64,000 nucleotides of DNA from Dehalococcoidia bacterium (GTDB lineage: Bacteria > Chloroflexota > Dehalococcoidia > Tepidiformales > Tepidiformaceae). A program made the position numbers and the translations under genes. The notes beneath the pieces were generated by a model, which saw only the letters and a program-made list of their open reading frames with translations, was not told where the DNA came from and made no database searches. The stretch is taken from the NCBI GenBank assembly GCA_022824925.1, contig JAJDYW010000018.1, forward strand, positions 35-64,034, in the 5' to 3' direction. Positions 9,992-49,865 of this stretch are shown here, piece after piece; the first letter of the stretch is position 1, and every line of letters starts with the position of its first letter.

Positions 9992-11215
9992 TCAACCCTC
10001 CGTCGCCGCCTCATCCTCCGGGTGCGTCGGACGCGCGTACCCGTAGACCAGCCCGTAGCCGATCGTCAGGACCGCGGTGAACCCCGCCACCATCGCCCCG
10101 GTCTGGAACGCCGTGGGCGCGCCGTAGGCATCGACGACGCCCCCGCCCAGGGCCGGCCCGATCGCCAGGCCCAGCCCGCTCAGCGCCACCGACCACCCGA
10201 TCAGCGTGCCCCGGTACGCCTCCGGCGCGAGGTCCATCATCGAGGCGTTCAGGGCCGGCACCTGCTGCACGTGCCCGCTGAAGATCACCGCCGTGGCGAA
10301 GGCCGCAAGGAAGATGTTCGTTGTCGCCGCCGCCGTCAGCGCCCCCGCGATGATCAGGAACTGGCCCAGCAGCAGCGGCAGCGTCCGCCCGATGCGGTCG
10401 GAGAGGTGTCCGGATGGCACGTAGAGGATGCCGCCCGCCACCACCGCCGGGATCAGGAAGACCGTCAGCTGGGCGAACGAGATGTCGAGCACGTTGTCGC
10501 CGTAGGGACGGATCGCCGGCACCAGCGAGCTGATCCCGACCGTCGCCGCGAGGATCAGGGCGCTCAGGAACACGAGCCGCTTCGAAAGCACGCTGCGGAG
10601 GGGTGGCCGGTGCTCGTGCGCCGCGCCCAGCTCCCGCCGGTAGGCGGGAACGCCCACCTGACCGGTGGCCAGCGCCGCCGCCACCGCCACGATGGCGATG
10701 ATGAAGAGGGAGTCCGGGAAGGTCTCCACCAGCAGCGCCCCCACCAGCGCCCCCAGCCCGAACCCCAGCAATTGGCCCACGTTCAGGAACCCCACCACCT
10801 TGCCCCGCTCCGTCGGCGGGTAGAGGTCCGCCCCGATCGCGTACGTCGCCGGCCAGATGAACGCCGTCGAGATCCCCAGCAGGGCCGCGAACCCGAGATA
10901 CGCCCACTCAACCTGGATGGCGCCCATCAGGGCCAGCGCCGGCACCATCAGCGCGAATCCCAGCAGCAGGGCGTACTTCCGCTCGATGCGGTCGCTGATT
11001 GCCCCCGCCGGCGTCTCCGAGAGGAATCGCGCCCCGCCGTAGAGCGCCAGCAGGTAGCCGCCGAACCCGTCGCTCGCCCCCAGGTTGTTGGGTACGAACT
11101 CCTGGAAGATCGCGAAGATCACGATTCCCAGCGCGACCTGCGCAAAGAAGATGCCGAGCCCCAGCGCGTGCGGCGCCCCCGAGAGCCACGATCGCAGCGC
11201 TTGCCACACGCGCAT
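9992..11215 (-). CDS. MFS transporter
   Basis: 407 aa with about 12 hydrophobic segments and the GAISDRIERK loop between TM2 and TM3. Confidence 0.85.
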   Translation of the reverse strand: MRVWQALRSWLSGAPHALGLGIFFAQVALGIVIFAIFQEFVPNNLGASDGFGGYLLALYGGARFLSETPAGAISDRIERKYALLLGFALMVPALALMGAIQVEWAYLGFAALLGISTAFIWPATYAIGADLYPPTERGKVVGFLNVGQLLGFGLGALVGALLVETFPDSLFIIAIVAVAAALATGQVGVPAYRRELGAAHEHRPPLRSVLSKRLVFLSALILAATVGISSLVPAIRPYGDNVLDISFAQLTVFLIPAVVAGGILYVPSGHLSDRIGRTLPLLLGQFLIIAGALTAAATTNIFLAAFATAVIFSGHVQQVPALNASMMDLAPEAYRGTLIGWSVALSGLGLAIGPALGGGVVDAYGAPTAFQTGAMVAGFTAVLTIGYGLVYGYARPTHPEDEAATEG

Positions 11216-11290
11216 CCCGAGACTCTACCGGGGCGCCACCGTGTGAGCCCCTCGCCCTCCCGTCCGCTGGTCCGTTGCCCGTGCCGTGCC

Positions 11291-11296
11291 TATCCT
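11291..11296 (+). promoter_or_regulatory. -10-like TATCCT, 9 nt upstream of GTG 11306 (leaderless-type)
   Basis: Read directly in the divergent MFS / SirB1-like intergenic region. Confidence 0.3.
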
Positions 11297-11305
11297 GACG
11301 GCGCG

Positions 11306-12139
11306 GTGGAGAACACCCCCGAGAGCGACTTTGCCCGAGCGATCGCGGGCCACGACCACGAGGTCGACCTCTTCGGCGGCGCCCTGGCCATTGCCCGCCT
11401 CGGCCACGACGACATCGATGGACACGCCCTCGCCCGCGAGCTCGATCTCATCGCGGAGTCCATCCGCGAGCGAGTCCCCGGCCGTCCCGACGCCGCTTCC
11501 CTCACCGCCGCCGTGAGCGCCGAGCTCTTCGGGAACCGCGGCTTCCGCGGCAATCGCGAGAACTACACCGATCCGAAGAACAGCTACATCGACTGCGTCA
11601 TCGAGCGTCGCCTCGGCATTCCCATCACCCTCTCCCTCGTCTTCATGGAGGTCGCCCAGCGTGTCGGCCTCGAGTGCGACGGGATCGGCTTCCCCGGCCA
11701 CTTCCTTGTCCGCTGCGGCGGCGATGACGGCGTCTTCGTCGACCCCTTCAACGCCGGCGAGCAGCCTACCCGCGCGGACCTCCTCGGCCGTCTCGAGGGC
11801 CGCAGCTCCGCGTTCCCAAGCGTCGATTCGTTCCTCGCCGCCGTCACCCGCCGCCAGATCCTGCAGCGCATGCTCGTCAACCTCTGCGTGGCCTACCAGG
11901 GCGAGGGCGATCCCCAACGCTGGGTCGCGGCCCTCGGCTTCCGCCTGCGCCTCGAACCCTGGAACGCCGCGCTCTACCTGGAGCGTGGACTCCTCTCCTT
12001 CCAGCAGGGCGAAGAAGCCCTTGCCTTGGCCGATCTCGAGCGGTACGTTGGCAGTGGCGAATCGGATGTGAATTCGCGCGCCCTTCGTGTGCTCGATACA
12101 CTTCGCTCACGGCTGGAAGGCGAGAGGGGGAATCCGTGA
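11306..12139 (+). CDS. SirB1-like transglutaminase-like/TPR protein
   Basis: NSYIDCVIERRLGIPITLSLVFMEVAQRVG...GFPGHFLV core plus a TPR-like C-terminus. Only the last 834 nt of the 705-aa track ORF look like real protein. Confidence 0.7.
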   Translation: MENTPESDFARAIAGHDHEVDLFGGALAIARLGHDDIDGHALARELDLIAESIRERVPGRPDAASLTAAVSAELFGNRGFRGNRENYTDPKNSYIDCVIERRLGIPITLSLVFMEVAQRVGLECDGIGFPGHFLVRCGGDDGVFVDPFNAGEQPTRADLLGRLEGRSSAFPSVDSFLAAVTRRQILQRMLVNLCVAYQGEGDPQRWVAALGFRLRLEPWNAALYLERGLLSFQQGEEALALADLERYVGSGESDVNSRALRVLDTLRSRLEGERGNP

Positions 12140-14822: not shown

Positions 14823-16685
14823 ATGTACGTCGTTGGCACCGCTGGTCACGTCGACCACGGCAAGAGCGCCCTTGTCCGCGCCCTCACGAACATCGACCCC
14901 GACCGCCTCCGCGAGGAGAAGGAGCGCGGCCTCACCATCGACCTTGGCTTCGCCTGGCTCGCCCTCCCCTCCGGCCGCGACATCAGCATCGTCGACGTGC
15001 CCGGCCACGAGCGCTTCATCAAGAACATGCTCGCCGGCGCCGGCGGCGTCGACCTCGCCCTCCTCGTCGTCGCCGCCGACGAGGGACCCATGCCCCAGAC
15101 CCGCGAGCACCTCGCCATTCTCGACCTGCTCGACGTGCCAGCCGGCGTCGTCGCCATCACGAAGTGCGACCTCGCCGAGGAGGAGTACGTCGACCTCGTC
15201 GAGGAGGAGGTCGCCGAGACGCTCCTTGGCTCGCGGCTCGAAGACGCCCCCATCATCCGCACCTCCGCCACCACCGGGGAGGGGCTCGGCGACCTCGTGG
15301 CCACCCTCGACGCCGCCCTCGACGCCACCCCCCCGAAGCGCGACCTCGGGCGCCCCCGCCTCCCCATCGACCGCGCCTTCACCATCCGCGGCTTCGGAGC
15401 CGTCGTCACCGGCACCCTCCTCGATGGCAGCCTCGAGGTTGGCCAGGAGGTCGAGATCCAGCCGGGAGGCCTGCGCGGACGCATCCGCGGCCTCCAGCGC
15501 CACGGCGGCAAGGTCGAGCGCCTCGCCCCCGGCACGCGCGCCGCCGTCAACGTCAGCGGCATCCGCACCGAGCAGCTCCACCGCGGCATGGTGCTCGCCG
15601 CGCGGGATGTGCTGAGCCCCGCCTACGCCCTAGACGTGCGCCTCAAGGCGACCGACCTCCTCAGCCACCCCCTCGCCCACGATGCGGGCGTCACATTCCT
15701 CTCTGCCACCGCCGAGTCCGAGGCGAAGGTGCGCTTCCTCGACCGCGACGAGCTCGCCGCTGGCGAGACCGGCTGGGCCCAGCTCGTGCTTGAGTCCCCC
15801 GTCGCCGTACTGCCCCGCGACAGCTGCATCGTGCGAACCCCCAACGAGACCGTCGCCGGCGGACCGATCGCCGCGGTCAATCCCCGCCGCCACCGCCGCA
15901 ACCTCCTTCCGACGCTCGAAGCCCTGGACCGCCAGCTCGAAGGCTCCACCGCCGAGCGCCTCGCCGACCTGCTCGCCGCGGCCCCCCTGCCCCGCGCCAC
16001 CATCGGCCCCGCGCTCGGCCTCGAGCCCGGCGATGCCGAGGCTGCTGCCACCGAGCTGCTCGAAGCCGGCCGCGCCCTCGAACACGGCCCCCTCCTCGCC
16101 GGCCGCCCCTGGCTCGACACCGCTCGCAGCCGCCTCACCGAGGCCGTGGGCGAGGACCTCGCCGGCCACCCCCTCCGCCCCTCCGTCCCCCGCGAGCAGT
16201 TGCGCAGCCGCCTCGGCCTCGAGCCGCAGCTCTTCGATCTGGTCGTCGCCGAGAGCGTCGCCGCCGGTGCTCTCGTCGAACGCCCCGGCGGTGGCCTCCA
16301 CCCGCCGGGTTACGCCGTCGCCCTCACCGCCGCCCAGCGCGAGCAGGCCGATGCCTTTGTAGAAGCGGTCAGGGCGGGCGGCGCCAGCCCCCCCACCGAG
16401 TCCCTCCCGCCTTCCGACCTGCTCGCCTACCTCGCAGGCGAGGGCCTCGTCGAGGACACCGGCTCCGGCGTCGTCTTCGAGGTGGGCGTCTACGCGGGCC
16501 TCGTCGACCGCATCCGGGAGCACATCGAGGGGAACGGCTCCGTCAGCCTCGCCGAGGTGCGCGACCTCTTTGGCACCAGCCGCAAGTACGCACAGGCCCT
16601 CCTCGAGCACCTCGACGCCACCCACGTCACCCGCCGCACCGGCGATGTGCGCGTGCTGCGCTCCCCCCTGGAGGCCCGCCGGTGA
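14823..16685 (+). CDS. selB: selenocysteine-specific translation elongation factor SelB
   Basis: GTAGHVDHGKSALV, DVPGHERF, LVVAADEGPMPQTREHL, TKCD. The C-terminal winged-helix tail reads FGTSRKYAQALLEHLDATHVTRRTGDVRVL. ATG 14823 is aa 168 of the track ORF. Confidence 0.9.
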   Translation: MYVVGTAGHVDHGKSALVRALTNIDPDRLREEKERGLTIDLGFAWLALPSGRDISIVDVPGHERFIKNMLAGAGGVDLALLVVAADEGPMPQTREHLAILDLLDVPAGVVAITKCDLAEEEYVDLVEEEVAETLLGSRLEDAPIIRTSATTGEGLGDLVATLDAALDATPPKRDLGRPRLPIDRAFTIRGFGAVVTGTLLDGSLEVGQEVEIQPGGLRGRIRGLQRHGGKVERLAPGTRAAVNVSGIRTEQLHRGMVLAARDVLSPAYALDVRLKATDLLSHPLAHDAGVTFLSATAESEAKVRFLDRDELAAGETGWAQLVLESPVAVLPRDSCIVRTPNETVAGGPIAAVNPRRHRRNLLPTLEALDRQLEGSTAERLADLLAAAPLPRATIGPALGLEPGDAEAAATELLEAGRALEHGPLLAGRPWLDTARSRLTEAVGEDLAGHPLRPSVPREQLRSRLGLEPQLFDLVVAESVAAGALVERPGGGLHPPGYAVALTAAQREQADAFVEAVRAGGASPPTESLPPSDLLAYLAGEGLVEDTGSGVVFEVGVYAGLVDRIREHIEGNGSVSLAEVRDLFGTSRKYAQALLEHLDATHVTRRTGDVRVLRSPLEARR

Positions 16686-17824
16686 CCCTCCGCATGGACA
16701 CCGTCGCCGCCGAGCTGCCCGCGCTCGTCGCCCGCCACGAGCAAACGCGCGTCGCGGCCGGCGCAGCCATCGAGGGCGCCCGCGCCGCCCTGCGCCAGTG
16801 GAGCGCCGACCCCGTTGCCGCTTCCGCCCGTATCGAGGCGGCCCTCGCCGGCCGGGCGGTCCCGTACGCGCTCGCCGAGGACGACCCCGCCGCCACCTTC
16901 CCCGCCCCGGCTCCCGCCCCCGTCACCGTGGTGGGCGTCGACGGCTCCTCCATCACCCCCGATCGCTTCTCCACCGTCCGCTGCTTCGCCGTGAACATCG
17001 GCCACGCCCTGCTCCCCTACGGTGTCCCCCTCGACCCCTCCTTCGACGCCGTAGCCGAGGTCGGCCTCGATGCCGACCTGCTCGAAGGCGCGCCCGACAT
17101 GCGCCGCGCCCCCCGCGGCCTCGCCACCCGTCTCCTTCGCGACGTGCGCGAGCTGGAACGGGGCGTCGAGCTCGTCGTGCCCGCGCTCGAAGCCGGCCCC
17201 GCCGTTCTCCTCCTTGATGGCACCCTCCTCCCCTGGGACCTCCATACGCGCCAGGCCTCCGACGAGGCCCTCGCCCCCTACCGCGACCGCACGCTCGCCG
17301 CCCTCGACCGCCTCAAGGCCTGTGGCGAACCCCTCAGCATGGGCGCCTACATCTCCGCCTCGGCCGCCCGCGAGGTCGTTGCTGCCCTCGAGGTGCTCGC
17401 CCCGCCTCCTCCCTCCGCCCCACTGCTCACCGACGGCGACATCTTCCGCGGCCTCCTCGCCCCCGGCGAACGCACGGCCACCTTCCGCTCGCGCAGCACC
17501 CGCCCCGGCACCGTCGAGTCCCTCCTGCCCGGCCACGACGTCGCCCTCTTCTACATCCGCGTGGACGATGACATCGCCCGCGTCGAGCTTCCCGCGTGGG
17601 CCGCCACGCCCTCCCGGGTTGATCGCCTCCACGCGACACTCGTCGACCAGTGCGAACGCTGCGACGGCTACCCACGCGCCCTCCAGGAGGCCCACGAGCA
17701 GGCCGTCATCTCCGCCGCCGACCGCGAGCAGTTCGAGCGCCTGCTCTCGCGTCTCGCGGGTGATGCGGGCATCCGCGAGCGCCGCAACGGCAAACAGCAC
17801 AGCAAGCGCAGGAGGTCGATCTGA
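16682..17824 (+). CDS. nurA: NurA-domain nuclease
   Basis: VVGVDGSSI, LLLDGTLLPW and C-terminal CDGYPRALQEAHEQAVIS match the NurA D...D...YP-x2-L-x2-AH pattern. Its GTG overlaps the selB stop (GTGA). Confidence 0.65.
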   Translation: MTLRMDTVAAELPALVARHEQTRVAAGAAIEGARAALRQWSADPVAASARIEAALAGRAVPYALAEDDPAATFPAPAPAPVTVVGVDGSSITPDRFSTVRCFAVNIGHALLPYGVPLDPSFDAVAEVGLDADLLEGAPDMRRAPRGLATRLLRDVRELERGVELVVPALEAGPAVLLLDGTLLPWDLHTRQASDEALAPYRDRTLAALDRLKACGEPLSMGAYISASAAREVVAALEVLAPPPPSAPLLTDGDIFRGLLAPGERTATFRSRSTRPGTVESLLPGHDVALFYIRVDDDIARVELPAWAATPSRVDRLHATLVDQCERCDGYPRALQEAHEQAVISAADREQFERLLSRLAGDAGIRERRNGKQHSKRRRSI

Positions 17825-17853: not shown

Positions 17854-18405
17854 GTGCGCGCCTTCGCGTGCGCCTATGCGCGCTACACGAGCGAGCCTTT
17901 CGCGCTCGGCCAGATGCTCGCCGTGCGCGAGGGGCGCTTCCTCACGTTCGGCGTGGTGACCGGCAGCGAGAGCGGCCCCAACGACCCCTCCCGACCCCTC
18001 GTCCCCCGCGGCGACGCCGGCCAGAGCGCCGCCGACGTCATGGCCGGCAACCCCGAGATCGAGCTGCTCCTGCGCACCACCCTGGGCGTTGCCATCTGCG
18101 GCCACGTCGATCGCGAGGTCGTCCGCCCCGCCCTTCCACCCCTGCCCCCACCCCTCCTGGCCGAGGTGCACGCCGCCACCGACGAGGAGAAGGTCCGCAT
18201 CGCCGACGAGGGACGGTTCCTCGTGCCCCTCCTCGCCAACCCTGCCGCCGATGACGCCGTCGTCGCCGCCGCCATCCGCGATGTCGCCCGCGCGGCCGGA
18301 CCCGGCGCCCGCCCCTTCCTCGTCACCGCCGGCAAGGAGCTCGCCCGCCTCCTCAAGGCCGAGCCCTCCCGCCTCACCAGTATCCTGCGGGCGGTGGAAC
18401 CATGA
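17854..18405 (+). CDS. hypothetical protein, possible stand-alone HAS-barrel-like partner of HerA
   Basis: 183 aa. GAGG lies 5 nt before GTG 17854. The N-terminus (FALGQMLAVREGRFLTFGVVTGSES) parallels the HerA N-terminus (LGQYAMTEVEGGLSLLGMVTDITL). There is no P-loop. Its stop overlaps the herA ATG. Confidence 0.5.
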   Translation: MRAFACAYARYTSEPFALGQMLAVREGRFLTFGVVTGSESGPNDPSRPLVPRGDAGQSAADVMAGNPEIELLLRTTLGVAICGHVDREVVRPALPPLPPPLLAEVHAATDEEKVRIADEGRFLVPLLANPAADDAVVAAAIRDVARAAGPGARPFLVTAGKELARLLKAEPSRLTSILRAVEP

Positions 18406-20117
18406 CCGACGCGAACTCCGCCTCCCGCCCGCTCGGCGTTGTCGTCGGGGGTTCCCTGACGAAAGGCCTCGAGGTGCGCCTCGACCCCGGCCAGGCCGCC
18501 CAGCTCGGCCAGTACGCCATGACCGAGGTCGAAGGCGGCCTCAGCCTCCTCGGGATGGTCACCGACATCACCCTCAAGTCCGTCGATGCCGGCCCCACCG
18601 TCTGGCCCCCCGGCGAAGCGGATACGCCCCTCCTGCGCGAGGTGCTGCAGGACACCGGCGTCTACACCGCCCTCTCCGTCGACCCCTACCTCGAGCTCGG
18701 CGAGAACGGCGAGGAGCCCGCCCGCGCCCGCCGCCTCCCCAGCCACTTCGCCGCCGTCCTCCCCGCCGACCAGGCCACCCTCGACCGCGCCTTCGCCACC
18801 GAGGGCCCCAGCATCCCCGTCGGCGCCCCCCTCGGCATGGACGAGCTCGAGGTCGGCGTCGACTTCGAGCGCCTTTTCGAGCGTTCCGCCGGTGTCTTCG
18901 GCAAGAGCGGCACGGGCAAGAGCGTGCTCGTCCTCCACCTTCTCGACGCCATGCTCACGCGCTCCGCGGCGGCCGCCACCAACAGCGAACGCACCGTCGC
19001 CCTCGTCTTCGATATGCACAACGACTACGGCTGGGAGATGAAGTTCCAGGGCCCGACGACCAACCGCCTGCGCTCCCTCAAGCAGCGCCACCAGACCGAC
19101 GTCGAGCTGTACACCCTCGAAGCCCGCGCCGCCCGATCCGATGGCCAGATCCTCATCGGCACGCGCGATATCCACCCCGACGACCTCGAGGTGCTGCGCG
19201 AAACGCTCGACCTGACGGACCTCGCCATCGACGCCGCCCACGCCTGTCGCCGCCGCTTCGGCCCCGGCTGGATCGACGAGATCCTCGCCGACGAGCCATC
19301 CGACGCCCTCGTGGGGAAGCTCTGGCGCCGCGAGCCGCCCGAGGGCGACGTCAACTGGTCGCAGGTCGCCGCCCAGATGGGCTACCCCGGGTCCCTCGAG
19401 AGCCTGCGCCGACGCATGGAGCGCCTCACCCGCCGCGAGTTCGTCCGCACCGAGGGGTCGCAGTTCGGCGATGTCATCGAGCACATCGTGCGCTCGCTCC
19501 AGGGCGGCAAGAGCGTCGTCGTCCAGTTCGGCCGCCATGGCAACGACCTCACCAGCTACATGCTCGTGGCGAACATGCTCTCCCGCCGCATCTGGGAACG
19601 CTACCGCGACAGCACCGAGTCCTCCCGCGAGCAGGCCGCCCCCAACCGCCTCGTCATCGTCATCGAGGAAGCGCACAAGTTCGTGGACCGCTCCCTCGCC
19701 GGCCAGAGCATCTTCGGCCAGATCGCCCGCGAGCTGCGCAAGTACAACGTCACCCTCCTCGTCATCGACCAGCGCCCCAGCCAGATCGACCCCGAGGTCC
19801 TCTCCCAGATCGGGACGAAGTTCACGCTCCAGCTCGATAGCGACAACGACGTCGAGGCCATCGTCGGCGGGGTCTCCGGGCGAAGCGGCCTGCGACAGGT
19901 CATCGCCTCCCTGGAGAGCAACCGCCAGGCCCTCGTCTTCGGCCACGCCCTCCCCATGCCCGTCGTCGTCCAGACCCCCGAGGCCACCGACGCCGAGTCC
20001 GCCCGCGCCTCCCTCCGCGCCCGCCTCGGCCTCCCCGAACGCGAGGAGACGAGCCCCGCCGCCGCCCTCTTCGGCGCCCCTTCCCCCGACTCCTCCCCAC
20101 CCGCGGACCCCTCGTGA
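18402..20117 (+). CDS. herA: HerA-like (FtsK/HerA superfamily) hexameric ATPase
   Basis: N-terminal barrel region, Walker A GVFGKSGTGKSVLV, Walker B LVIVIEEAHKFV, LLVIDQRPSQID. Confidence 0.8.
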   Translation: MTDANSASRPLGVVVGGSLTKGLEVRLDPGQAAQLGQYAMTEVEGGLSLLGMVTDITLKSVDAGPTVWPPGEADTPLLREVLQDTGVYTALSVDPYLELGENGEEPARARRLPSHFAAVLPADQATLDRAFATEGPSIPVGAPLGMDELEVGVDFERLFERSAGVFGKSGTGKSVLVLHLLDAMLTRSAAAATNSERTVALVFDMHNDYGWEMKFQGPTTNRLRSLKQRHQTDVELYTLEARAARSDGQILIGTRDIHPDDLEVLRETLDLTDLAIDAAHACRRRFGPGWIDEILADEPSDALVGKLWRREPPEGDVNWSQVAAQMGYPGSLESLRRRMERLTRREFVRTEGSQFGDVIEHIVRSLQGGKSVVVQFGRHGNDLTSYMLVANMLSRRIWERYRDSTESSREQAAPNRLVIVIEEAHKFVDRSLAGQSIFGQIARELRKYNVTLLVIDQRPSQIDPEVLSQIGTKFTLQLDSDNDVEAIVGGVSGRSGLRQVIASLESNRQALVFGHALPMPVVVQTPEATDAESARASLRARLGLPEREETSPAAALFGAPSPDSSPPADPS

Positions 20118-20350
20118 GCGAGGCTCCCCGCGCCGACGCCGAGTGGGACGCCGGCGACCTCGGCTGCGGGGAGGTACTGGTGATGCTACGCTCGCGTATG
20201 CGGGGCATCGCTCCGGGACAGGTGCTCAGGCTCACCGTGCGTGATCGTGGCGCCCCCGAAGAGATGCCCGCCTGGTGTCGCATGACCCGGCGCCGTCTGC
20301 TCCGCGCCGACCATCCTCACTACTGGATCGAGCAACGCCAGGAACCCTGA
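20114..20350 (+). CDS. TusA/SirA-like sulfur-carrier domain protein (variant C-G-E motif)
   Basis: 78 aa. WDAGDLGCGEVLVMLRSRMRGIAPGQVLRL...PAWCRMT fits the TusA fold pattern, but with CGE in place of CPxP. Its GTG overlaps the herA stop. Confidence 0.65.
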   Translation: MSEAPRADAEWDAGDLGCGEVLVMLRSRMRGIAPGQVLRLTVRDRGAPEEMPAWCRMTRRRLLRADHPHYWIEQRQEP

Positions 20351-20370
20351 ACGAAGGAGACACCCGCTCC

Positions 20371-20733
20371 GTGCCAGGCAAGTTCTGCGTCAACCTCACC
20401 TCCTCCGGCAACGATCCCGACAAGGCCACCGTCGGGTTCGTCGTCGCCAACGCGGCCCTCGGTTCCGAGAAGGAGACCCTGGTCTTCCTCAGCACCGAGG
20501 GCGTCCGCCTCGCCGAGAAGGGCTACGCCGACGCCATCCGCGAGGACGGCTTCCTCCCGCTTACCGACCTCATGAACGCCTTCACCGAGGGCGGGGGCCT
20601 CATCTACGTCTGCGCTCCCTGCTTCAAGAAGCGCGGCCTCGATGAGGACAACCTCGTCGACGGCGCCCGCATCGTCGGTGGGGCCATGCTCGTCGAGTTC
20701 CTCTCCGACGGCTCCCCCAGCGTCACCTACTAG
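20371..20733 (+). CDS. DsrE/DsrF-like (COG2210-type) sulfur-relay family protein
   Basis: FCVNLTSSGNDPDKATVGFVVANAAL...LVFLSTEGV...YVCAPCFKKRG. AAGGAG lies 11 nt upstream of GTG 20371. Confidence 0.7.
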   Translation: MPGKFCVNLTSSGNDPDKATVGFVVANAALGSEKETLVFLSTEGVRLAEKGYADAIREDGFLPLTDLMNAFTEGGGLIYVCAPCFKKRGLDEDNLVDGARIVGGAMLVEFLSDGSPSVTY

Positions 20734-20749
20734 CGGAAGCGCTCCCGCC

Positions 20750-22291
20750 GTGAGCCCCGAAGCCGCCCAGCCCGCCCCCGTCGAACGGCACCCCCTCGCG
20801 CCAGACGCCGGCTTCGACGGCGGCGACCTCGACTGTGGCGGCGGCCTCCTCCTGCTCATCCGCCGCCACATCGATCCCCTCGCCCCCGGCGGCATCCTCG
20901 AGATCCGCTCGACCGAACCGACGGTAGAGGTCGAGTTGCCCGCCTGGTGCCGCCTCACCGGCAACGAGCTCGTCTCCTGGACGAAGCACGGCGACCAGCG
21001 GAGCTACCTCGTGTCGAAGGGCCCGCTCGCGGCGCGCACGGAGACGCCCCCGCCTCCCCCGTCCGCGCCCGTCGCGGACCACCCCGTGACCGGGGTCCAC
21101 GTCCCCGACTCCCTTCCCGAGCCCGCCCCCGCCCCTGCCATCGCGCCGCTCTCCGTCATGGGCATCGGCAGCTGGCCCCGCCCCCGCTGGATGCTCCAGG
21201 CCCTGCACGACCACCTCGAAGGGCGCCTCGACGGCGCCGCCTTCGCCGAGACCGCCGACGACGCCGTCCGCCTCGCCCTCGACGCCCAGCGCCGCGCCGG
21301 CGTCGACGTCCTGACCGATGGCGAGCAGCGCCGCGACAACTACGCCAGCTTCGTTGGCGGCCTCCTCGATAACTGCCAGCTCATCCCCCTCAGCGACCTC
21401 ACCGCCATGGTCGACGACCCCGACGAGTTCCACCGCGAGCTGCGAGCCCTCGACGTGCCCGCCGAAGACGTGCGCCACCCCGTGGTCTACGGCCCCCTTG
21501 GCCGCAGCCGCCCCCTCGCCGCCCACGAGCTCGCGTTCATCCGCTCCGCCGCCGGAGCGCCCGTCAAGGTCGCGCTCCCCGGCCCCTACCTGCTGACTCG
21601 CACGATGTGGCTCGATTGCCTCCGCGAGCGGCCTTACGAGACCCGCGAAGACCTCGCCGTTGATGTCGTGCGCGTCCTCCGGGAAGAGGTGCACGCGCTC
21701 CTCGCCGGCGGCGCCGCTCTCGTGCAGTTCGACGAGCCCGTGCTCACCGAGGTCGTCTACGGCGAGGCCGGGGCGAAGCGCAGCTTCATGTGCGGCGCCC
21801 TCGGCGAGAAGCTCGCCCCCGAGCGAGAGCTCGACTTCGCCGCCGGCCTCCTCCGCGAGGTCGTCCGAGGCCTCCCCGCCGAGCGCCTCGGCCTCCACGT
21901 CTGCCGCGGGAACTGGACCCCCGACGAGTCCGCCGCCCTTTCGGGCGACTATCGCCCCCTGCTCGGCTTCCTCGGCGAGGCGCCCGTCGGGGCCGTCTTC
22001 CTGGAGCTCTGCACGCCCCGTGCCGGCGAGATGGAACACCTCCGGGAGCTCCCCGGGGAGAAGCGCATCGGCGTCGGTGTCGTGAACCCGAAGGATCCCG
22101 CGGTCGACGACCCCGTGGCCCTGCGCGAGCGCATCGCCCGCGCGGTCAATCTCTTCGGCGAGGAGCGCGTGCTCCTCACGCCCGACTGCGGTTTCGCCAC
22201 CTTCGCCGACAACCCCGTCGCCTCCGCCCGCACGGCCGAGGCGAAGCTCGCCGCAATCGTCCGGGCCCGCGACGCCCTGCGTTCCGCCTGA
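20750..22291 (+). CDS. fusion protein: N-terminal TusA-like domain + MetE-like (cobalamin-independent methionine synthase C-terminal/UROD-like) domain
   Basis: N-terminus: FDGGDLDCGGGLLLLIRRHI...PAWCRLT. A Pro-rich linker follows. The MetE-like part has TDGEQRRDNY, VQFDEPVL, LHVCRGNW (H-x-C) and LTPDCGF, which are the Zn-ligand positions. Confidence 0.75.
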   Translation: MSPEAAQPAPVERHPLAPDAGFDGGDLDCGGGLLLLIRRHIDPLAPGGILEIRSTEPTVEVELPAWCRLTGNELVSWTKHGDQRSYLVSKGPLAARTETPPPPPSAPVADHPVTGVHVPDSLPEPAPAPAIAPLSVMGIGSWPRPRWMLQALHDHLEGRLDGAAFAETADDAVRLALDAQRRAGVDVLTDGEQRRDNYASFVGGLLDNCQLIPLSDLTAMVDDPDEFHRELRALDVPAEDVRHPVVYGPLGRSRPLAAHELAFIRSAAGAPVKVALPGPYLLTRTMWLDCLRERPYETREDLAVDVVRVLREEVHALLAGGAALVQFDEPVLTEVVYGEAGAKRSFMCGALGEKLAPERELDFAAGLLREVVRGLPAERLGLHVCRGNWTPDESAALSGDYRPLLGFLGEAPVGAVFLELCTPRAGEMEHLRELPGEKRIGVGVVNPKDPAVDDPVALRERIARAVNLFGEERVLLTPDCGFATFADNPVASARTAEAKLAAIVRARDALRSA

Positions 22292-22307
22292 CCGCTCGTC
22301 CGGAGCG

Positions 22308-23114
22308 CTAGGCCCGCCCCAGCGCCGCGTACACGCGGTGCGGAACCGCCATCGGGTTCTCGGGGAATCGTTCCGCCAGCACCGCCGCCAGGCTTTCGTC
22401 GAATCGCGCCACCTCGGCCTCGCTGAGCGTGGCCGCCACGCCCGCGCTCGCCCGGATGCGTCCCCGCCACGCCTCATGTGTGTACGGCACCGCCACGTCG
22501 AACTCGAACGACGAGCATTCCCCGAACCCGGCCGCCGAGAGCTCGTCCAGCCAGTCCCGGTGCCGCCCGTCCCCGCCTCCCAGCGTCCACTCCGGGTTGG
22601 CTGCCACGATCAACGCCTCGGTGACGCCGGGGATGTTCCCCGGCAGCGGCACCCAGTCGAGCGAGCAGATGACGAGCCGCCCGCCCGCCTTCAGGAGGCG
22701 CTTCGCCTCCGCCGCGGCGCGTGGCCGGTCGAACCACCACCACGACGATGCCGAGACCACGAGGTCGGCCTCCCCCGCCGCCAGCCCCGTTTCCTCCGCC
22801 GTCGCCTGCACATACCGGGCGCTTGCGCCCGCCTGCTCGTCCAGCGCCCGCGCCTGCTCCGCCATCGCCGCCGAAGGGTCGACCCCCACGACCCTGGCCC
22901 CCCGGAGCGCCAGGTTCCGCGCGACATCCCCCGTCCCCGTGCCGAGGTCCACGGCATGGCCGCCGTCGATGCGGACGCCGTGCGCCTCAAGCTCGTCGTA
23001 GAAGCGGTCCGGGAGCCCCGCCCGGAAGGTCGCGTAGTCCGTGGCGGTCTTGCCGAAGTCCACGCCCGACATCCGCCGGGCGCGCTCGCCGAGGCTCGCC
23101 GCGTCCTCGTCCAT
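22308..23114 (-). CDS. class I SAM-dependent methyltransferase
   Basis: Motif I AVDLGTGTGDVARNLALRGARVVGVDPS. Confidence 0.8.
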   Translation of the reverse strand: MDEDAASLGERARRMSGVDFGKTATDYATFRAGLPDRFYDELEAHGVRIDGGHAVDLGTGTGDVARNLALRGARVVGVDPSAAMAEQARALDEQAGASARYVQATAEETGLAAGEADLVVSASSWWWFDRPRAAAEAKRLLKAGGRLVICSLDWVPLPGNIPGVTEALIVAANPEWTLGGGDGRHRDWLDELSAAGFGECSSFEFDVAVPYTHEAWRGRIRASAGVAATLSEAEVARFDESLAAVLAERFPENPMAVPHRVYAALGRA

Positions 23115-23119
23115 GCTGG

Positions 23120-25624
23120 TTAGCCGCCCGTGGCCGCCGCCTCCTGCGGCTCGCCCTCGCCCCCCGAGGTGAATCGCCGGAAGAACCGACCGATGTCGTG
23201 GTTATCCCAGGCGACCAGCACCTGCGCCGCTACGAAGATGCTGCTGTACGTCCCCGCGATCACGCCCACGAGCAGCACGAGCAGGAAGTTCTGGATGGTC
23301 ACGCCGCCGATCAGGAACATCGCGATGATCGTCAGCACCGTCACGAACGACGTGTTGACCGATCGCACGAGCGTCTCCGTCAGGCTCACGTTCACCGCCT
23401 CGGCGAAGGGCACGTAGGCATCCCGCGAGGTCACCTCGCGCACGCGGTCGAACACGACGATCGTGTCGTGCACGGAGAAGCCGATGACCGTCAGGATCGC
23501 GACGATAAAGGCGGCGTCCACCTCGATGTCGGCCACCTTCGCCAGCAGCGAGAAGAGCCCCAGCACGATCACCGAGTCGTGCACGAGCGCGATCACCGCG
23601 CAGAGCCCGTACCGCCAGGCCGCGCGCTGCCGCCTGAACGCGAACGCCACGTAGATGAGGATCGCCACCGCCGCCGCCACCACCGCCAGCGTTGCGTCCC
23701 GCGCGATCTCCGTCGAGACCGTCCCCGAGACGGTCGCGAAGTCCAGCCGCTGCACCGGGCCGAACTCGGCCTCCAGCCCCGCCAGGATCTCGTCGATCTC
23801 GCCCGGCGGCACCGGCCCCACCCCCGCATCGAGCGAGGGCGCTCCCTCGAGCTCGATCGTTCGCACCAGGAACGTGTTGAATCCCGCCCCCTGCACCCGT
23901 GCCTCGGGATGGCCGAGCCGCTCCAGCGCGTCCCGAAGCTCCTCCGGCTCCACCGCGCGCACCGGCTCCGGGTCCGGCGGCGCCTCGTCCGTTGCGGACG
24001 CGTCCTCCCCCTCCGCCGCCTGCCCCCCCGCCGGAACCGCTGCCTCCCCGAACTGCAGCGTGAAGGTCGAGCCCCCCGTGAACTCGATCCCCGCCTTCAG
24101 CGGGGGCGGTACCGCCAGCGTGATCGCCGCCGCCAGGAACACCACCAGCGACAGCCCCAGCGTGATCCAGCGCCGCTGCGCGAATGCGATGAACGTCGAG
24201 CGCGCAGTTGCCGGCGCCGCTTCCGCGTCCTCTGCTCCGTCTCCGGCGGCTTCGCTGCGAGGCGGCGGCGGCTCGGCGTTGAAGAGCCAGCGCGAGCGCG
24301 CGATGCGTGTCCCCACGAGCAGCCGCAGGAACGTCCGCGTCACCACGATCGCCGAGAACATGCTCACCGCCACGCCGATCGCCAGCGTGATCGCGAACCC
24401 CCGCACGAACGACGCGCCGAACTGGTCGCCGAACCAGAACAGGATCGCGCAGGTGATGAACGTCGCGATGTTGGAGTCCCGGATCGAGGGCCACGCCCGC
24501 CGGAAGCCGGTCTCGATCGCGTTCGCGAGCGGCCTTCCGCGGCGTAACTCCTCCTTCATCCGTTCGAAGATGAGGATGTTCGCATCGACCGCCATGCCCA
24601 CCGAGAGGATGAAGGCCGCGATTCCCGAGAGCGTGAGCGTCACCGGCCAGAGCTTGAACACCGTCAGCGTGATCAGCGCGTAGACGATGAGCGCGAAGGC
24701 GGCCAGCACGCCCGGCAAGCGGTAGTAGAGAATCATGAACGCCAGCACCGCCAGCAGCCCGATCTCGGCCGCGTTCACCGAGGCCTTCACCGAGTCGTCG
24801 CCCAGGGAGGCGCTCACCTCGTTCGCCTGGATCGTGCGCAGGGGCACCGGCAGGGCGCCCGCGTTGAGCTGCTTCGAGAGGTCCGTCGCCTCGGTGAAGC
24901 TGTCGAGCCCCGTGATCGTGCCCTGCTCCTCGATCACCCCCTGCACCACCGCGTCGGAGATCGGCTCGTTGTCGAGGTACACCAGGAGTCGCCGGCGGGG
25001 GTCGGTGGGGCTGTATTCGTCATTCAGCGCCCGCGTGGTGATCTGGCGCATCAACTCGGCGCCGTCGCCCGTCGTCTCGAAATTGACCGCGAAGAGCGTG
25101 CCCCGCCGCTCCGGGAACGTGTTGTTCTTGAGGTGCTGGCCCGTCATCGCGATCTCCACGCCGTCGATGATCCCCGTTGCCGGGACCAGCTCCCCGGCGT
25201 CGTTGAAGACGAAGTACTGCAGCGAGGCCGTGCGGCCGATCAGCCGTTCCGCGTCCGGCAGGCTCATCCCCGGTACCTGCACGTCGAGCCGGTTGCCGCT
25301 CGCGATCTGGATCTCCGGCTCAACCACCCCGAAGGCGTCCACGCGCCGCTCGATGACCTCCTTGGCCACCTCCAGCGATTCGGTCAGGTTCCCTTCGTAG
25401 TCGGCCGGTGGCTCCGCCTGCAGCACGAGGTGCGCCCCGCCCTGCAGGTCCAGCCCGAGGCGCATCGTTCGCCGCTCGTAGTCGCCGATGCTGATGCCCC
25501 GGCCCTCGGGCCAGAAGTCGCCGGGCAGGTAGCGGCTGGGCGCGCTCGGCCAGACCGCGTACAGGCAGAACAGCGTGCCCGCGAGGATCGCGAGAAATAT
25601 CCCGACGTTCGCGGGACTACGCAT
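23120..25624 (-). CDS. secDF: protein translocase subunit SecDF (fused)
   Basis: 834 aa. The SecD part has GLDLQGGAHLVLQ and LGDDSVKAS. The SecF part has a second 6-TM block. The halves are joined by an Ala/Glu-rich linker. Confidence 0.9.
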   Translation of the reverse strand: MRSPANVGIFLAILAGTLFCLYAVWPSAPSRYLPGDFWPEGRGISIGDYERRTMRLGLDLQGGAHLVLQAEPPADYEGNLTESLEVAKEVIERRVDAFGVVEPEIQIASGNRLDVQVPGMSLPDAERLIGRTASLQYFVFNDAGELVPATGIIDGVEIAMTGQHLKNNTFPERRGTLFAVNFETTGDGAELMRQITTRALNDEYSPTDPRRRLLVYLDNEPISDAVVQGVIEEQGTITGLDSFTEATDLSKQLNAGALPVPLRTIQANEVSASLGDDSVKASVNAAEIGLLAVLAFMILYYRLPGVLAAFALIVYALITLTVFKLWPVTLTLSGIAAFILSVGMAVDANILIFERMKEELRRGRPLANAIETGFRRAWPSIRDSNIATFITCAILFWFGDQFGASFVRGFAITLAIGVAVSMFSAIVVTRTFLRLLVGTRIARSRWLFNAEPPPPRSEAAGDGAEDAEAAPATARSTFIAFAQRRWITLGLSLVVFLAAAITLAVPPPLKAGIEFTGGSTFTLQFGEAAVPAGGQAAEGEDASATDEAPPDPEPVRAVEPEELRDALERLGHPEARVQGAGFNTFLVRTIELEGAPSLDAGVGPVPPGEIDEILAGLEAEFGPVQRLDFATVSGTVSTEIARDATLAVVAAAVAILIYVAFAFRRQRAAWRYGLCAVIALVHDSVIVLGLFSLLAKVADIEVDAAFIVAILTVIGFSVHDTIVVFDRVREVTSRDAYVPFAEAVNVSLTETLVRSVNTSFVTVLTIIAMFLIGGVTIQNFLLVLLVGVIAGTYSSIFVAAQVLVAWDNHDIGRFFRRFTSGGEGEPQEAAATGG

Positions 25625-47792: not shown

Positions 47793-49865
47793 TTACGACT
47801 CGTCCGCACACGGGATTCTGCTGCACAGGTCAGTCCAGAAGGCCGTGTGGGCCGCATCTCGGGCGCGTTGTTCCAGCTCTACGGCATCCCAGGTCACTCG
47901 GTTGAGTGCGTACTGCTCAAGCCGATCACGCAGGGTGACTTCGGCAGCCCATCTGGCAATGGCAGCCTCGAGGTAACGCGCCAGACGGGGGTCTTGTGTG
48001 GCAGGGTGGGAGCGCAAGGGGGTGAGTCGGTCGACCAGTGCTTGCGCGAGGTCGCGCTGTTCCCGGGCGATGGTGGCGAGAGCCTGCGAGGGCGGGGACT
48101 CGCTGCTGGCATTCCACTCGTCAGTCAGGGTGCTGATTGCGTTGGTCGTCGGACGCCAGTCTCCAATGAGGTCGATGAACTCCCACTCCGATGCCTCCGC
48201 CGCTGAGTCTTCTGCTGCTGCCTTTGCCTGTGCCGCTTCCGTGCAGCGGTCCTGCGTGTTCGTGTATCCCTGCAGCAGCCAGAGGTCGCACCGGGCCTGG
48301 GTGTAGGACGCCCATGCGGCGGCGCGTTCGGCTTGACTGCGCGCGACGGCCCCCCAGGTCGCGGTGTCGAGAGCGTAGGACTCGAGAGTGGAGTTCACAG
48401 CCGTGCTGGAGGACCAGTAGTCGATCGCGCCTTCCAGGTATTGATTCGCGGCTTCGTTGACGGTGGCGGGGTCGTCACGGAGCCCCGTGAGCGTGGTCAC
48501 CATCGCCTGGGACAGGTCGCGCCGCTTCCTTGCGTTCTCGGCGAGCCTCTCCGACGGAGGGCTCTCGTAGTCGTTGATGATGTCCCACTGCTCGGTGAGG
48601 CTATTGAGGGCGGTGATGGTTGATCCCCAGTCCTGGGAGATGCTGTTGACGAGCTCGTTGATGTCCCAGAACGTCGGCTCGCCGGACTCCGTCGAAGGGG
48701 AACTCTCGGCTGGCGGTGGGGACTGTCCTGTACGGATGCGCTGTAGCAGTCGGGCAAGGGAAGGCTCGGCCACGGCGAAGTGCAGCCCTTCCGAGCCGCG
48801 CTCGCCTACAACGCTATAGCTCATGACCCCCGCCACCCGGCCACACGCGTCCACCAGCGGACCGCCGCTGTTCCCGGGGCTCACGGCCGAGTCCGTCTGA
48901 ATGAACGAGACTCCTTGCTGGGTGAACATCCGTGAAACGATGCCACGAGTAATCGAGGCCTCCTCGCCCCCGCCAAGACCCTCGGGGTATCCGATTACGG
49001 CGACCGCAGCGCCGGGGGCAAGTGGTTCGGCCCACTCAAGTGCGGCGAGGCCCGGCGCAGACGCCGAGAGGATTGCCACGTCGCCGCTTTCGAAGGGGTA
49101 GTACCCCACGATCCGTGCCGACACGTCGACGTGTGCATTGCGCAGAGTGATCCAGGAGGGGTCGTGGTCAATGACGTGCCCGGCCGTCACGAACTCCGAG
49201 TCTCCGATGTAGAAGGCGCTGCCAATGTTGAAGGTGTTGGCCTCGTCGCCCGGTGTCACCACCTGCACCGTGCTGGCGATGACTCGTGCCGCCATGGCTT
49301 CGTCGATCACGCACGACGTGCGGTCCGGTGGGGCCACGGAGTCGGGCAGGTCCGGCAGCGGCACGTCGACGAGCACGGCGTTGCTCTGGTGGAATCTCCC
49401 CGAACTGCTGAGCGCCAACAGGTCGAGGGCCGTGTTCTCGGTGCGCCACGTCCCGCCCTCGGGGCGCGTGCTCAAGTAGAGCAAGGAAGGATTCGAGACG
49501 CGGCGCCAGACGGTCACCTCGACCGTCGCCGTCTCACCGCCGCCGAGCGGAACCGCGACGAGCACTGCGTTGCTCTGGCGGAATCTCCCGGAACTGCTGA
49601 GCGCCGACATGTCGAGGGCCGTGTTCTCGGTGCGCCAGGTCCCGCCCTCGGGGCGCGTGCTCAGGTAGAGCAAGGACGGATTCGACACCCGGCGCCAGAC
49701 CGTCACCTCGACGCCCGCGGTTCTGGGTTCGGATGGTCCCTGTGCGGCAGCGCTTCCCAGGGTGCTCAGTGCGAACACCGCCGAGACAAGGACGATGCCG
49801 AACAGTTGCGCGCGCCTCAACGCGGTGTTCCTGACGGTATAGGTGTAGTGTGATTTACCGAGCAA
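47793..49865 (-). CDS. secreted trypsin-like (S1C/DegP-type) serine protease with duplicated N-terminal and C-terminal modules
   Basis: Signal peptide RRAQLFGIVLVSAVFALSTLGSAAA. Triad contexts: TAGHV, GDVAIL, GNSGGPL. There are two 56-aa near-identical repeats and two ~125-aa helical repeats. TTG 49820 is an alternative start. Confidence 0.8.
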   Translation of the reverse strand: MLGKSHYTYTVRNTALRRAQLFGIVLVSAVFALSTLGSAAAQGPSEPRTAGVEVTVWRRVSNPSLLYLSTRPEGGTWRTENTALDMSALSSSGRFRQSNAVLVAVPLGGGETATVEVTVWRRVSNPSLLYLSTRPEGGTWRTENTALDLLALSSSGRFHQSNAVLVDVPLPDLPDSVAPPDRTSCVIDEAMAARVIASTVQVVTPGDEANTFNIGSAFYIGDSEFVTAGHVIDHDPSWITLRNAHVDVSARIVGYYPFESGDVAILSASAPGLAALEWAEPLAPGAAVAVIGYPEGLGGGEEASITRGIVSRMFTQQGVSFIQTDSAVSPGNSGGPLVDACGRVAGVMSYSVVGERGSEGLHFAVAEPSLARLLQRIRTGQSPPPAESSPSTESGEPTFWDINELVNSISQDWGSTITALNSLTEQWDIINDYESPPSERLAENARKRRDLSQAMVTTLTGLRDDPATVNEAANQYLEGAIDYWSSSTAVNSTLESYALDTATWGAVARSQAERAAAWASYTQARCDLWLLQGYTNTQDRCTEAAQAKAAAEDSAAEASEWEFIDLIGDWRPTTNAISTLTDEWNASSESPPSQALATIAREQRDLAQALVDRLTPLRSHPATQDPRLARYLEAAIARWAAEVTLRDRLEQYALNRVTWDAVELEQRARDAAHTAFWTDLCSRIPCADES
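49356..49712 (-). repeat. intragenic tandem duplication, two copies, 189-bp period, about 93% identical
   Basis: Copies at 49356-49523 and 49545-49712 encode VEVTVWRRVSNPSLLYLSTRPEGGTWRTENTALD...SSSGRF.QSNAVLV.VPL. I counted about 11 mismatches by eye. Confidence 0.9.

Follow-up and report, generated by a model that had tools for sequence, protein, structure and literature searches.

A gene cassette of TusA-like, DsrE-like and TusA::MetE-like proteins in Dehalococcoidia and other bacteria: a candidate chalcogen relay coupled to a methionine-synthase-type enzyme

The three genes and their products

The DNA considered here is a 64-kb window (the whole stretch that was analysed, 64,000 nucleotides, to which all coordinates refer unless a locus label is given) of contig JAJDYW010000018.1 from a Dehalococcoidia bacterium, and our subject is a cassette of three genes that are tightly packed on its + strand at 20114-22291. 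The first gene (20114..20350, +) encodes a stand-alone TusA-like carrier of 78 amino acids and has a GTG start that overlaps the stop codon of an upstream herA gene (GTGA); the second (20371..20733, +), which likewise starts with GTG, encodes a DsrE-like protein of 120 amino acids; and the third (20750..22291, +) encodes a 513-residue fusion of a TusA-like domain to a core MetE-like barrel. The original prediction for this DNA had described three such consecutive genes, and the motifs that it quoted (GDLGCGE, VCAPCF, GDLDCGGG, a Pro-rich linker, LHVCRGNW and LTPDCGF) are all present, while its assignment of the products as TusA, DsrE and TusA::MetE-like proteins is borne out by Pfam profiles. 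The start of the dsrE-like gene can be fixed at 20371 because a Shine-Dalgarno-like GAAGGAGA (20353..20360, +, read from the sequence) lies 10 nucleotides 5' of this GTG and because the resulting length is common to all homologues; the start at 20275 given by mechanical calling of open reading frames (ORFs) is too long, every homologue being exactly 120 residues. The closest homologues of the fusion are also 513 residues long and match 100% of the query.

The 78-residue protein matches the Pfam TusA family (PF01206) at 30.5 bits, above the gathering score of 28.6, and has a putative active cysteine, C18 (20165-20167), in the motif GDLGCGE and a second conserved cysteine, C55 (20276-20278), in the motif PAWC; both motifs are kept in the stand-alone copies of other phyla. 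None of the homologues has the CPxP of canonical TusA, the corresponding positions reading C-G-E/D in the stand-alone proteins and C-G-G/N/S/T in the fusions, although the cysteine itself is conserved, and the carrier motifs of this group are GxxxCG and PAWC. The NCBIfam equivalog model for E. coli TusA (NF001423) gave 28.4 and 26.2 bits, below its cut-off of 78. The 120-residue protein matches Pfam DsrE (PF02635) at 48.5 bits against a gathering score of 22.7 and contains an invariant C81-x-P83-C84 (20611-20622, VCAPCFKKR) and a near-invariant C6. Its AlphaFold2 (AF2) model, with a predicted local distance difference test (pLDDT) value of 92, is a confident DsrE fold, for which the best match in the PDB (by Foldseek) is the DsrE/DsrF-like structure 3mc3 with a TM score of 0.85, followed by YchN and DsrEFH; a search of NCBIfam at E <= 10 gave no meaningful match to this protein, YedF (TIGR03527) and SaoD included. 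A known DsrE-like selenoprotein carries the motif UxxC (PMC13188914). No in-frame TGA codon for selenocysteine (Sec) occurs in any of 74 copies of the dsrE-like gene, all of which have cysteine.

The fusion is made up of an N-terminal TusA-like domain (residues ~1-91; 20750..21022), a Pro/Ala-rich linker (residues ~92-130; 21023..21139) and a core MetE-like barrel (21140..22291), the last of which matches Pfam Meth_synt_2 (PF01717) at 83 bits against a gathering score of 21. The tethered domain scores 27.8 bits with the TusA profile, marginally under the gathering score given above, and a precomputed PF01206 match is present in many fusion homologues; invariant alignment columns identify it further, with C29 (20834-20836, GDLDCGGG) invariant and C67 (20948-20950, PAWC) near-invariant, and the AF2 secondary structure of residues 20-89 runs beta-alpha-beta-alpha-beta-beta. 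The linker differs in length and sequence among homologues and has pLDDT values below 50 at residues 96-116. Within the barrel, the Zn ligands are H383 (21896) and C385 (21902) in LHVCRGNW, E419 (22004) in FLELC and C480 (22187) in LTPDCGF, and the homocysteine-binding residues are S141 (21170), E192 (21323) and D328 (21731), the functional residues of both sites being defined as in PMC7857596. The ligands align with those of MetE and of the MesD structure 3RPD, and the triad with S22, E73 and D188 of 3RPD (S433, E484 and D599 in E. coli numbering; PMC7857596). All four ligands and all three homocysteine residues are invariant among the 48 fused homologues that were aligned, which bears out the Zn site that the original prediction had read from two of these motifs; the homocysteine triad extends to unfused relatives as well. 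Since these three residues, which hold the amino-acid part of the ligand, are invariant, the fusion very probably has homocysteine or methionine as one of its ligands. A further cysteine on a loop, C348 (21791, RSFMCGAL), is invariant and nearly specific to the fused family.

No folate-binding N-terminal barrel (Meth_synt_1) was detected in the window's fusion, for which Pfam returned only PF01717 and TusA, and the protein lacks the two-barrel organisation of MetE, with 58.8 bits to TIGR01371 against a cut-off of 930. The best NCBIfam match was PRK04326 at 138 bits against 406, all others scored lower, and the fusion fell below every cut-off of MesA, MesB, MesC and the other curated short methionine synthase models; indeed no NCBIfam model reached its cut-off for any of the three cassette proteins. 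In public databases the fusion is mostly named '5-methyltetrahydropteroyltriglutamate--homocysteine methyltransferase' and once (P0437, from Pigmentiphaga humi) '2-hydroxypropyl-CoM lyase'. These names are probably wrong and over-annotated, and the folate-methyltransferase name in particular is to be doubted because the window's fusion has no detected folate-binding domain. Some proteobacterial homologues of the fusion carry a precomputed match to PF08267 (Meth_synt_1). One fused relative (P0130, 503 residues, 45% identical) has lost H383 and C480 and retains its TusA-like domain together with the homocysteine triad, and is probably a paralogue without catalytic activity or with another purpose.

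Distribution and genomic neighbourhoods

Relatives of the fusion were found in a single scan in at least 237 species-representative genomes, a lower bound, from at least nine phyla, their hosts including Chloroflexota, Latescibacterota, Binatia, Burkholderiales, Gallionellaceae, Verrucomicrobia, Acidobacteriota, Planctomycetota and Actinomycetota. When the Paracoccus protein was used as the query, many Proteobacteria in culture could be added, among them Paracoccus versutus, P. thiocyanatus, Xanthobacter, Bosea, Ancylobacter, Azorhizobium, Nitrospirillum, Pigmentiphaga, Pseudomonas stutzeri and Bordetella hinzii. The trio has the same order in Chloroflexota, Latescibacterota, Binatia, Verrucomicrobia, Acidobacteriota, Planctomycetota, Actinomycetota and the Alpha-, Beta- and Gammaproteobacteria. 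Of 80 loci with the fusion, 74 also have a dsrE-like gene (59-98% identity), which almost always lies immediately upstream, and the stand-alone tusA-like gene is present in most clades and missing from most Binatia. The predicted co-occurrence of the three genes in related genomes thus extends across phyla. The constant order of the cassette is set within flanks that fall into about 25-30 context classes, and it is because the flanking genes vary so widely among lineages that we regard the trio as an autonomous unit. Clustering at 50% left only a handful of full-length fused clusters, and the nearest unfused relatives of the fusion are 32-42% identical to it, from which the fused family is, on sequence grounds, one compact clade. 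Full-length fused proteins of ~500 residues number in the hundreds and come from independent assemblies that include complete isolate genomes. No curated NCBIfam model for the TusA::MetE-like fusion was found, and no description of it was found in the literature searched (including Price et al. 2021, PMC7857596), the coverage of which was incomplete. The cassette is, then, widespread yet apparently uncharacterised: no account turned up of the architecture, which the original prediction did not recognise as a described one either, and the family is common, not rare.

Genes for the synthesis and use of selenocysteine (Sec genes) lie within 10 kb of the cassette in four independent contexts. In the verrucomicrobial locus L038 the cassette is convergent with selB-selA, which is followed by a Pyr_redox::SelD fusion gene and a gene for tRNA-Sec; two related metagenome contigs (L081 and L090) keep the adjacency of fusion and selB at an identity of only 51-55% between their SelB proteins and the one of L038. 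The loci of Paracoccus ferrooxidans and P. versutus run sufS, then tusA-dsrE-X-Y-fusion-selA-trxB, in which X and Y are two inserted genes described below. The Paracoccus selA is a genuine one, scoring 565 bits with TIGR00474 (cut-off 268), and the same island also holds selB, tRNA-Sec and the gene for a UGSC selenoprotein, whose reading frame contains a TGA. In Binataceae locus L057 tRNA-Sec lies 3.4 kb from the cassette, and in Dehalococcoidia, the window included, selB is found in a block that adjoins it. The chance of meeting at least four Sec contexts among the ~25-30 is P ~0.002-0.007 if 2-3% is assumed for each context, a figure that is a rough estimate on an assumed per-context chance and not a formal test.

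Several details of these Sec loci may be recorded beside the main pattern. The UGSC gene (L099 2529-3098, - strand, in P. ferrooxidans CP038202.1, and likewise L100 5529-6095 in P. versutus) is annotated as two 'hypothetical proteins', in-frame halves joined by TGA (…VVGLAN*GSCTSW…) that both match PF24696. In P. ferrooxidans selB is apparently split by copies of an insertion sequence (IS) of the IS5 family, ISPme2 (L099 16663-17694 and L101 2379-4943): the main part of selB adjoins one copy, and a 67-residue fragment of SelB wing 3 adjoins another, beside a Pyr_redox gene and tRNA-Sec. In L057 (15542-18433) the tRNA-Sec is followed by a phage-type integrase gene, for which it may be the integration site.

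Uptake genes form a second recurring theme. In Alpha-, Beta- and Gammaproteobacteria the genes X and Y are inserted between dsrE and the fusion, as seen in Paracoccus, P. stutzeri, B. hinzii and Xanthobacter (L099 6886-8970, L108 7878-9985, L111 7919-9980 and L112 7710-9883, all inside the cassette). Protein X is a membrane protein of ~170 residues with invariant C38, C109-x-x-C112 and C159, the CxxC lying in a membrane segment, and protein Y is a secreted, C-terminally anchored periplasmic protein of ~515 residues with an invariant CPTGH; neither had a match in Pfam, NCBIfam or PDB profiles, and the 164- and 466-residue ORFs of the Verrucomicrobia type had none in Pfam. Burkholderiales and Nitrospirillum have a PhnD/E/C-type ATP-binding cassette (ABC) importer at the same position between dsrE and the fusion. 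TonB-dependent receptors occur near the cassette in some loci, one of which (L113) has a MerR-type regulator and a TonB receptor upstream, and trxB lies downstream of the cassette in Paracoccus and in L095. Neither a corrinoid protein nor DUF1852 (MesX) was seen among the cassette's neighbours in the scanned loci, the sole B12-binding gene observed (L104) belonging to a methylmalonyl-CoA mutase cluster. In many loci the themes of uptake, of selenium and of sulfur and methionine are all absent. No shared regulator emerged, the LysR proteins of Paracoccus and Paraburkholderia being only 25% identical over 127 residues and the regulators elsewhere being of the TetR, GntR or AraC type. In L103 (5125-9432) the cassette is divergent from genes for a Fur-family regulator, ZnuA, SodC (Cu/Zn superoxide dismutase) and ZnuCB-like proteins, an arrangement that hints at control of a Zn enzyme by zinc limitation. 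Transglutaminase-superfamily genes also recur: a Transglut_core2 and TPR protein is encoded ~8 kb upstream of the cassette in the window (10022-12139), Transglut_core genes lie directly upstream in Verrucomicrobia-type contigs (L095 2220-3248 and 4986-6065), and an annotated transglutaminase of Paracoccus, likewise encoded upstream (L099 3502-4608), is 26% identical to the L095 protein.

The window itself has a G+C content of ~72% across its 64 kb, and its nearest relatives are genomes of the Tepidiformaceae (Chloroflexota, Dehalococcoidia), with protein identities of 85-93%. Its selB gene (about 14823-16685, +; Pfam GTP_EFTU, SelB-wing_2, SelB-wing_3 and Beta-barrel_SelB), encoding the selenocysteine-specific elongation factor, lies 3.4 kb upstream of the cassette on the same strand and is followed by nurA (16682-17824, +; Pfam NurA), a conserved 183-residue ORF (17854-18405, +) and the gene for a HerA-like ATPase (18402-20117, +; Pfam DUF87 and HAS-barrel) whose stop codon overlaps the tusA-like start. 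Genes for TsaE, TsaB, NDK, a peptidyl-prolyl isomerase (PPIase), the transglutaminase/TPR protein, a Crp-type regulator and HemW belong, with nurA, to the same co-directional string as selB. The overlap by which the cassette had been proposed to be translationally coupled to the end of a string containing selB is therefore real, and the partner is herA, selB being more distant within a mixed housekeeping string. The linkage to nurA, herA and hemW is confined to Dehalococcoidia and is taken as lineage synteny and not as a functional link; the 183-residue ORF, which has no Pfam or NCBIfam match, is kept across this class at 27-93% identity. Downstream and convergent to the cassette is a gene for an S-adenosylmethionine (SAM) methyltransferase (22308-23114), followed by secDF and yajC; it was considered as a fourth member and set aside, being kept only within Tepidiformaceae, and the methyltransferases found near the cassette elsewhere are non-orthologous. 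In the window, selA, selD and tRNA-Sec were not found, though selB is present; Rfam at its gathering threshold returned nothing and no tRNA gene was found; a scan for split ORFs joined by TGA found none; and a promoter and terminator scan of 19800-23300 found no sites. At some distance (47793-49865, - strand), the local G+C content falls to 0.66 around a 690-residue ORF with lower G+C at third codon positions (GC3), where the GC skew, elsewhere uniformly negative, disappears; this segment may be foreign DNA.

A possible chalcogen relay and its alternatives

The reading that we favour, tentatively and at a little short of an even chance, is that in the trio sulfur or selenium is relayed along cysteines and that this relay is coupled to a MesD-like Zn methyltransferase that acts on homocysteine independently of folate, the whole probably serving to scavenge a methylated chalcogen. 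The parts of such a relay would be the stand-alone TusA-like protein, the DsrE-like protein with its C-x-P-C motif and the enzyme-tethered TusA-like domain, and the relay-type cysteines (C18/C55, C81/C84, C29/C67 and C348) are conserved. An unusual second substrate is suggested because no folate-binding domain was detected and neither a corrinoid protein nor MesX is encoded nearby, and this substrate may be a thiophilic species handed on cysteines, since a carrier is tethered on a Pro-rich linker, two further cysteine carriers are encoded with it and uptake genes are embedded in the cassette. That a chalcogen travels on the carriers to the Zn site, or away from it, is our inference, as are the identity of this chalcogen, the methyl donor and the direction in which the reaction runs. 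A more specific and more speculative version is that homocysteine receives its methyl group from a methylated selenium or sulfur held on the carrier. A chalcogen compound would be imported by lineage-specific systems (X and Y, or the PhnD/E/C-type importer, in Proteobacteria), and its methylated S or Se group would become bound to C29 as Cys-S-Se-CH3 or Cys-S-S-CH3; the flexible linker would then swing the tethered domain to the Zn site, where Zn-activated homocysteine would take the methyl group to become methionine. The perselenide or persulfide remaining on the carrier would move by way of the DsrE-like and TusA-like proteins either towards SelD, to be used in making selenocysteine, or into sulfur assimilation. 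In its selenium form this would amount to bacterial selenium salvage, with methylselenol, dimethyl(di)selenide or methylseleninate captured on the tethered cysteine, the methyl group going to homocysteine and the perselenide to SelD, a proposal that we put forward as a doubtful one; the same chemistry may act on methylated sulfur in lineages without nearby Sec genes.

A number of observations weigh against this picture. A thiolate meeting Cys-S-Se-CH3 or Cys-S-S-CH3 normally attacks the chalcogen and not the methyl carbon, which makes the proposed donor speculative. Most contexts have no Sec genes nearby, including those of P. stutzeri, B. hinzii, Burkholderiales, Latescibacterota and most Binatia, and the window's selB lies among housekeeping genes, so that the local adjacency is weak evidence. 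The link to selenium that the original prediction drew partly from this adjacency is supported by independent genomes, i.e., by the Sec neighbours in Verrucomicrobia-type contigs, Paracoccus and Binataceae, and receives no real support from the window. Other neighbourhoods point elsewhere: metW-metX-metY are divergent from the cassette in 14 Binatia loci, which suggests methionine synthesis, while the sulfatases upstream in Latescibacterota, and the sulfatase and luciferase-like monooxygenase with flavin reductase near the Xanthobacter copy, suggest sulfur scavenging. The AF2 model of the whole fusion is only moderate (pLDDT 68). Rfam, run on the window and on seven diverse loci, revealed no SAM or cobalamin riboswitch or other regulatory RNA, the seven loci together yielding only a single tRNA-Sec.

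The main and strong rival, which we nevertheless judge rather unlikely, is that the fusion represents a plain fifth family of core methionine synthase, which would just turn homocysteine into methionine, with the small proteins accessory to it in the manner of MesX, no chalcogen reaching the active site and the selenium neighbours coincidental; the TusA-like and DsrE-like proteins could then make or present the methyl donor or could keep the oxidation-sensitive Zn-thiolate reduced, by CxxC chemistry with thioredoxin reductase. Such a synthase would fit the invariance of all Zn and homocysteine residues, the kinship with MesD (the closest solved relative, which itself needs an unrelated accessory protein), the metW-metX-metY genes that adjoin the cassette in Binatia, the trxB genes noted above and the absence of Sec genes near most loci. 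It leaves the uptake systems inside the cassette unexplained and has to treat four Sec contexts among ~25-30 as accidental, with the rough estimate of P ~0.002-0.007 standing against this; SAM and B12 riboswitches, which often regulate metE, were not found, and Paracoccus and Pseudomonas normally own MetH and/or MetE already.

Closer to the original prediction, which favoured methylation of persulfide or selenium species over methionine synthesis, is the idea that the carriers bring persulfide or perselenide to the Zn site to be methylated to methanethiol or methylselenol, with S-methylmethionine or SAM as a donor in the homocysteine pocket, for the purpose of detoxification, volatilisation or methionine synthesis via MetY. 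The tethering of a carrier domain to a Zn fold that alkylates thiols and selenols speaks for it, as do the selenium neighbours and the adjacency of MetY, which can use methanethiol, in Binatia; the homocysteine pocket could conceivably hold the amino-acid part of a sulfonium donor. The uptake systems and the TonB-dependent receptors of some loci suggest nutrient acquisition instead of disposal, however, and the adjacency of selA, selB and selD points to selenium being supplied for selenocysteine and not removed, while we know of no MetE-family enzyme that uses the ligand of this pocket as donor. With S141, E192 and D328 invariant and metW-metX-metY present in 14 Binatia loci, such methylation is not favoured over that of homocysteine, and we regard it as improbable. 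More improbable still is a role of the small cysteine proteins as Zn chaperones or insertases, the cassette being a methionine back-up under zinc limitation and X and Y importing metal in the manner of MerP and MerT. The folds of TusA and DsrE are known as sulfur and not as zinc carriers, and the selenium neighbours would be left unexplained; the divergent zinc genes of L103 (the Fur-family regulator with ZnuA, SodC and ZnuCB) fit this role, yet a single such adjacency in ~25-30 contexts is compatible with chance. The membrane CxxC of X, the invariant CPTGH of Y and the MerR-type regulator and TonB receptor upstream in L113 could also be taken in its favour, and Haft noted metal ABC importers and the AztD chaperone among the neighbours of proteins related to SaoD, which is DsrE-like. 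Both carrier-bound methylation and zinc delivery are less likely than the chalcogen relay or a fifth synthase family. That the trio is no functional unit at all, the fusion being an artefact of annotation or assembly and the genes mere neighbours, has next to no probability in view of the same gene order across many phyla and the hundreds of fused proteins from independent assemblies.

The cassette touches two open questions, namely how selenium is handed to selenophosphate synthetase inside cells and which methyl donors and partners serve the core methionine synthases that do without folate, for it physically joins sulfur or selenium carriers to a methionine-synthase-type active site and travels with uptake genes. 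If selenium salvage of the kind outlined above were true, it would supply a missing route of selenium delivery for selenocysteine together with a new type of methyl donor for an enzyme of this type. Culturable and likely genetically amenable hosts exist in P. versutus, P. stutzeri, B. hinzii and Xanthobacter. Metabolic reconstructions that count the fusion as MetE may meanwhile be misled by its database names.

Comparison with known systems

In sulfur or thiosulfate carriers of the TusA/DsrE3 type, small proteins of the two families move sulfur species along conserved cysteines, and in the thiosulfate uptake pair YeeE/YeeD the TusA-like YeeD has a membrane importer as its partner. Such systems supply sulfur for oxidation, for the thiolation of tRNA or for making cysteine, and we know of none that includes a MetE-like enzyme, whether as a fusion or as a neighbouring gene. 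A nearer parallel on the selenium side is YedE/YedF, a candidate selenium transporter and a TusA-DsrE protein, in which YedF is a fusion of TusA and DsrE(CGxC) that co-occurs statistically with SelD (Lin et al. 2015, PMC5322559). The cassette shares with this pair the TusA-like and DsrE-like CxxC modules, a Cys-containing membrane protein and linkage to selD, selA and selB; it differs in that its TusA-like and DsrE-like proteins are encoded by separate genes and carry CG(E/G/N) and CxPC in place of CPxP and CGxC, and in that it contains a MetE-like enzyme, whereas the YedF systems contain none. The Phaeocystis 'MetE-fusion' (PMC10861871) is built differently, from PP-binding, MetE and Pyr_redox parts.

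Among methionine synthases, the best PDB match of the fusion, both by sequence and by predicted fold, is 3RPD, a structure solved with selenomethionine bound. This is MesD, one of four folate-independent 'core' methionine synthase families (Price et al. 2021, PMC7857596), which needs an unrelated dedicated partner, MesX, and whose methyl donor is unknown (PMC7857596). The two have in common a single MetE-type barrel without a folate-binding domain, the same H/C/E/C Zn ligands and the same S/E/D triad. The fusion is only 22% identical to 3RPD, however, with a score of 80 bits, membership in MesD being set at 560 bits to ACIAD3523 (PMC7857596); no DUF1852 (MesX) gene adjoins the cassette in any scanned neighbourhood; and the TusA-like domain, the loop cysteine C348 and the TusA-like and DsrE-like partners are not described for MesD. 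Judged by these measures the fusion is not a MesD, and it falls outside MesA, MesB, MesC and MetE as well. With MetE (TIGR01371) it has in common the C-terminal catalytic barrel (PF01717) together with a Zn-thiolate site and a pocket for homocysteine, and it differs in having no detected N-terminal folate-binding barrel and in its score of 58.8 bits against 930.

The closest functional likeness is found in Methanococcus, in which selenium starvation induces a TusA/TusD pair together with the SdmABC methyltransferases (PMC11097638). The latter, annotated as uroporphyrinogen decarboxylases (UROD), demethylate dimethylselenide as a selenium source (PMC11097638, where the work on SdmABC and TusA-TusD is cited from Niess and Klein 2004). 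The likeness lies in a methyltransferase that recovers methylated selenium and in carriers that are induced under the same starvation, and UROD and the Methanosarcina mazei methyltransferase 4ay7 are among the weaker fold matches of the fusion barrel. The Sdm system relies on a corrinoid protein and on coenzyme M as acceptor, whereas the cassette has no corrinoid neighbour and its enzyme has a homocysteine pocket, and the resemblance is thus of a kind that may indicate a possible mode of working for the cassette, by analogy, and not membership in the same family.

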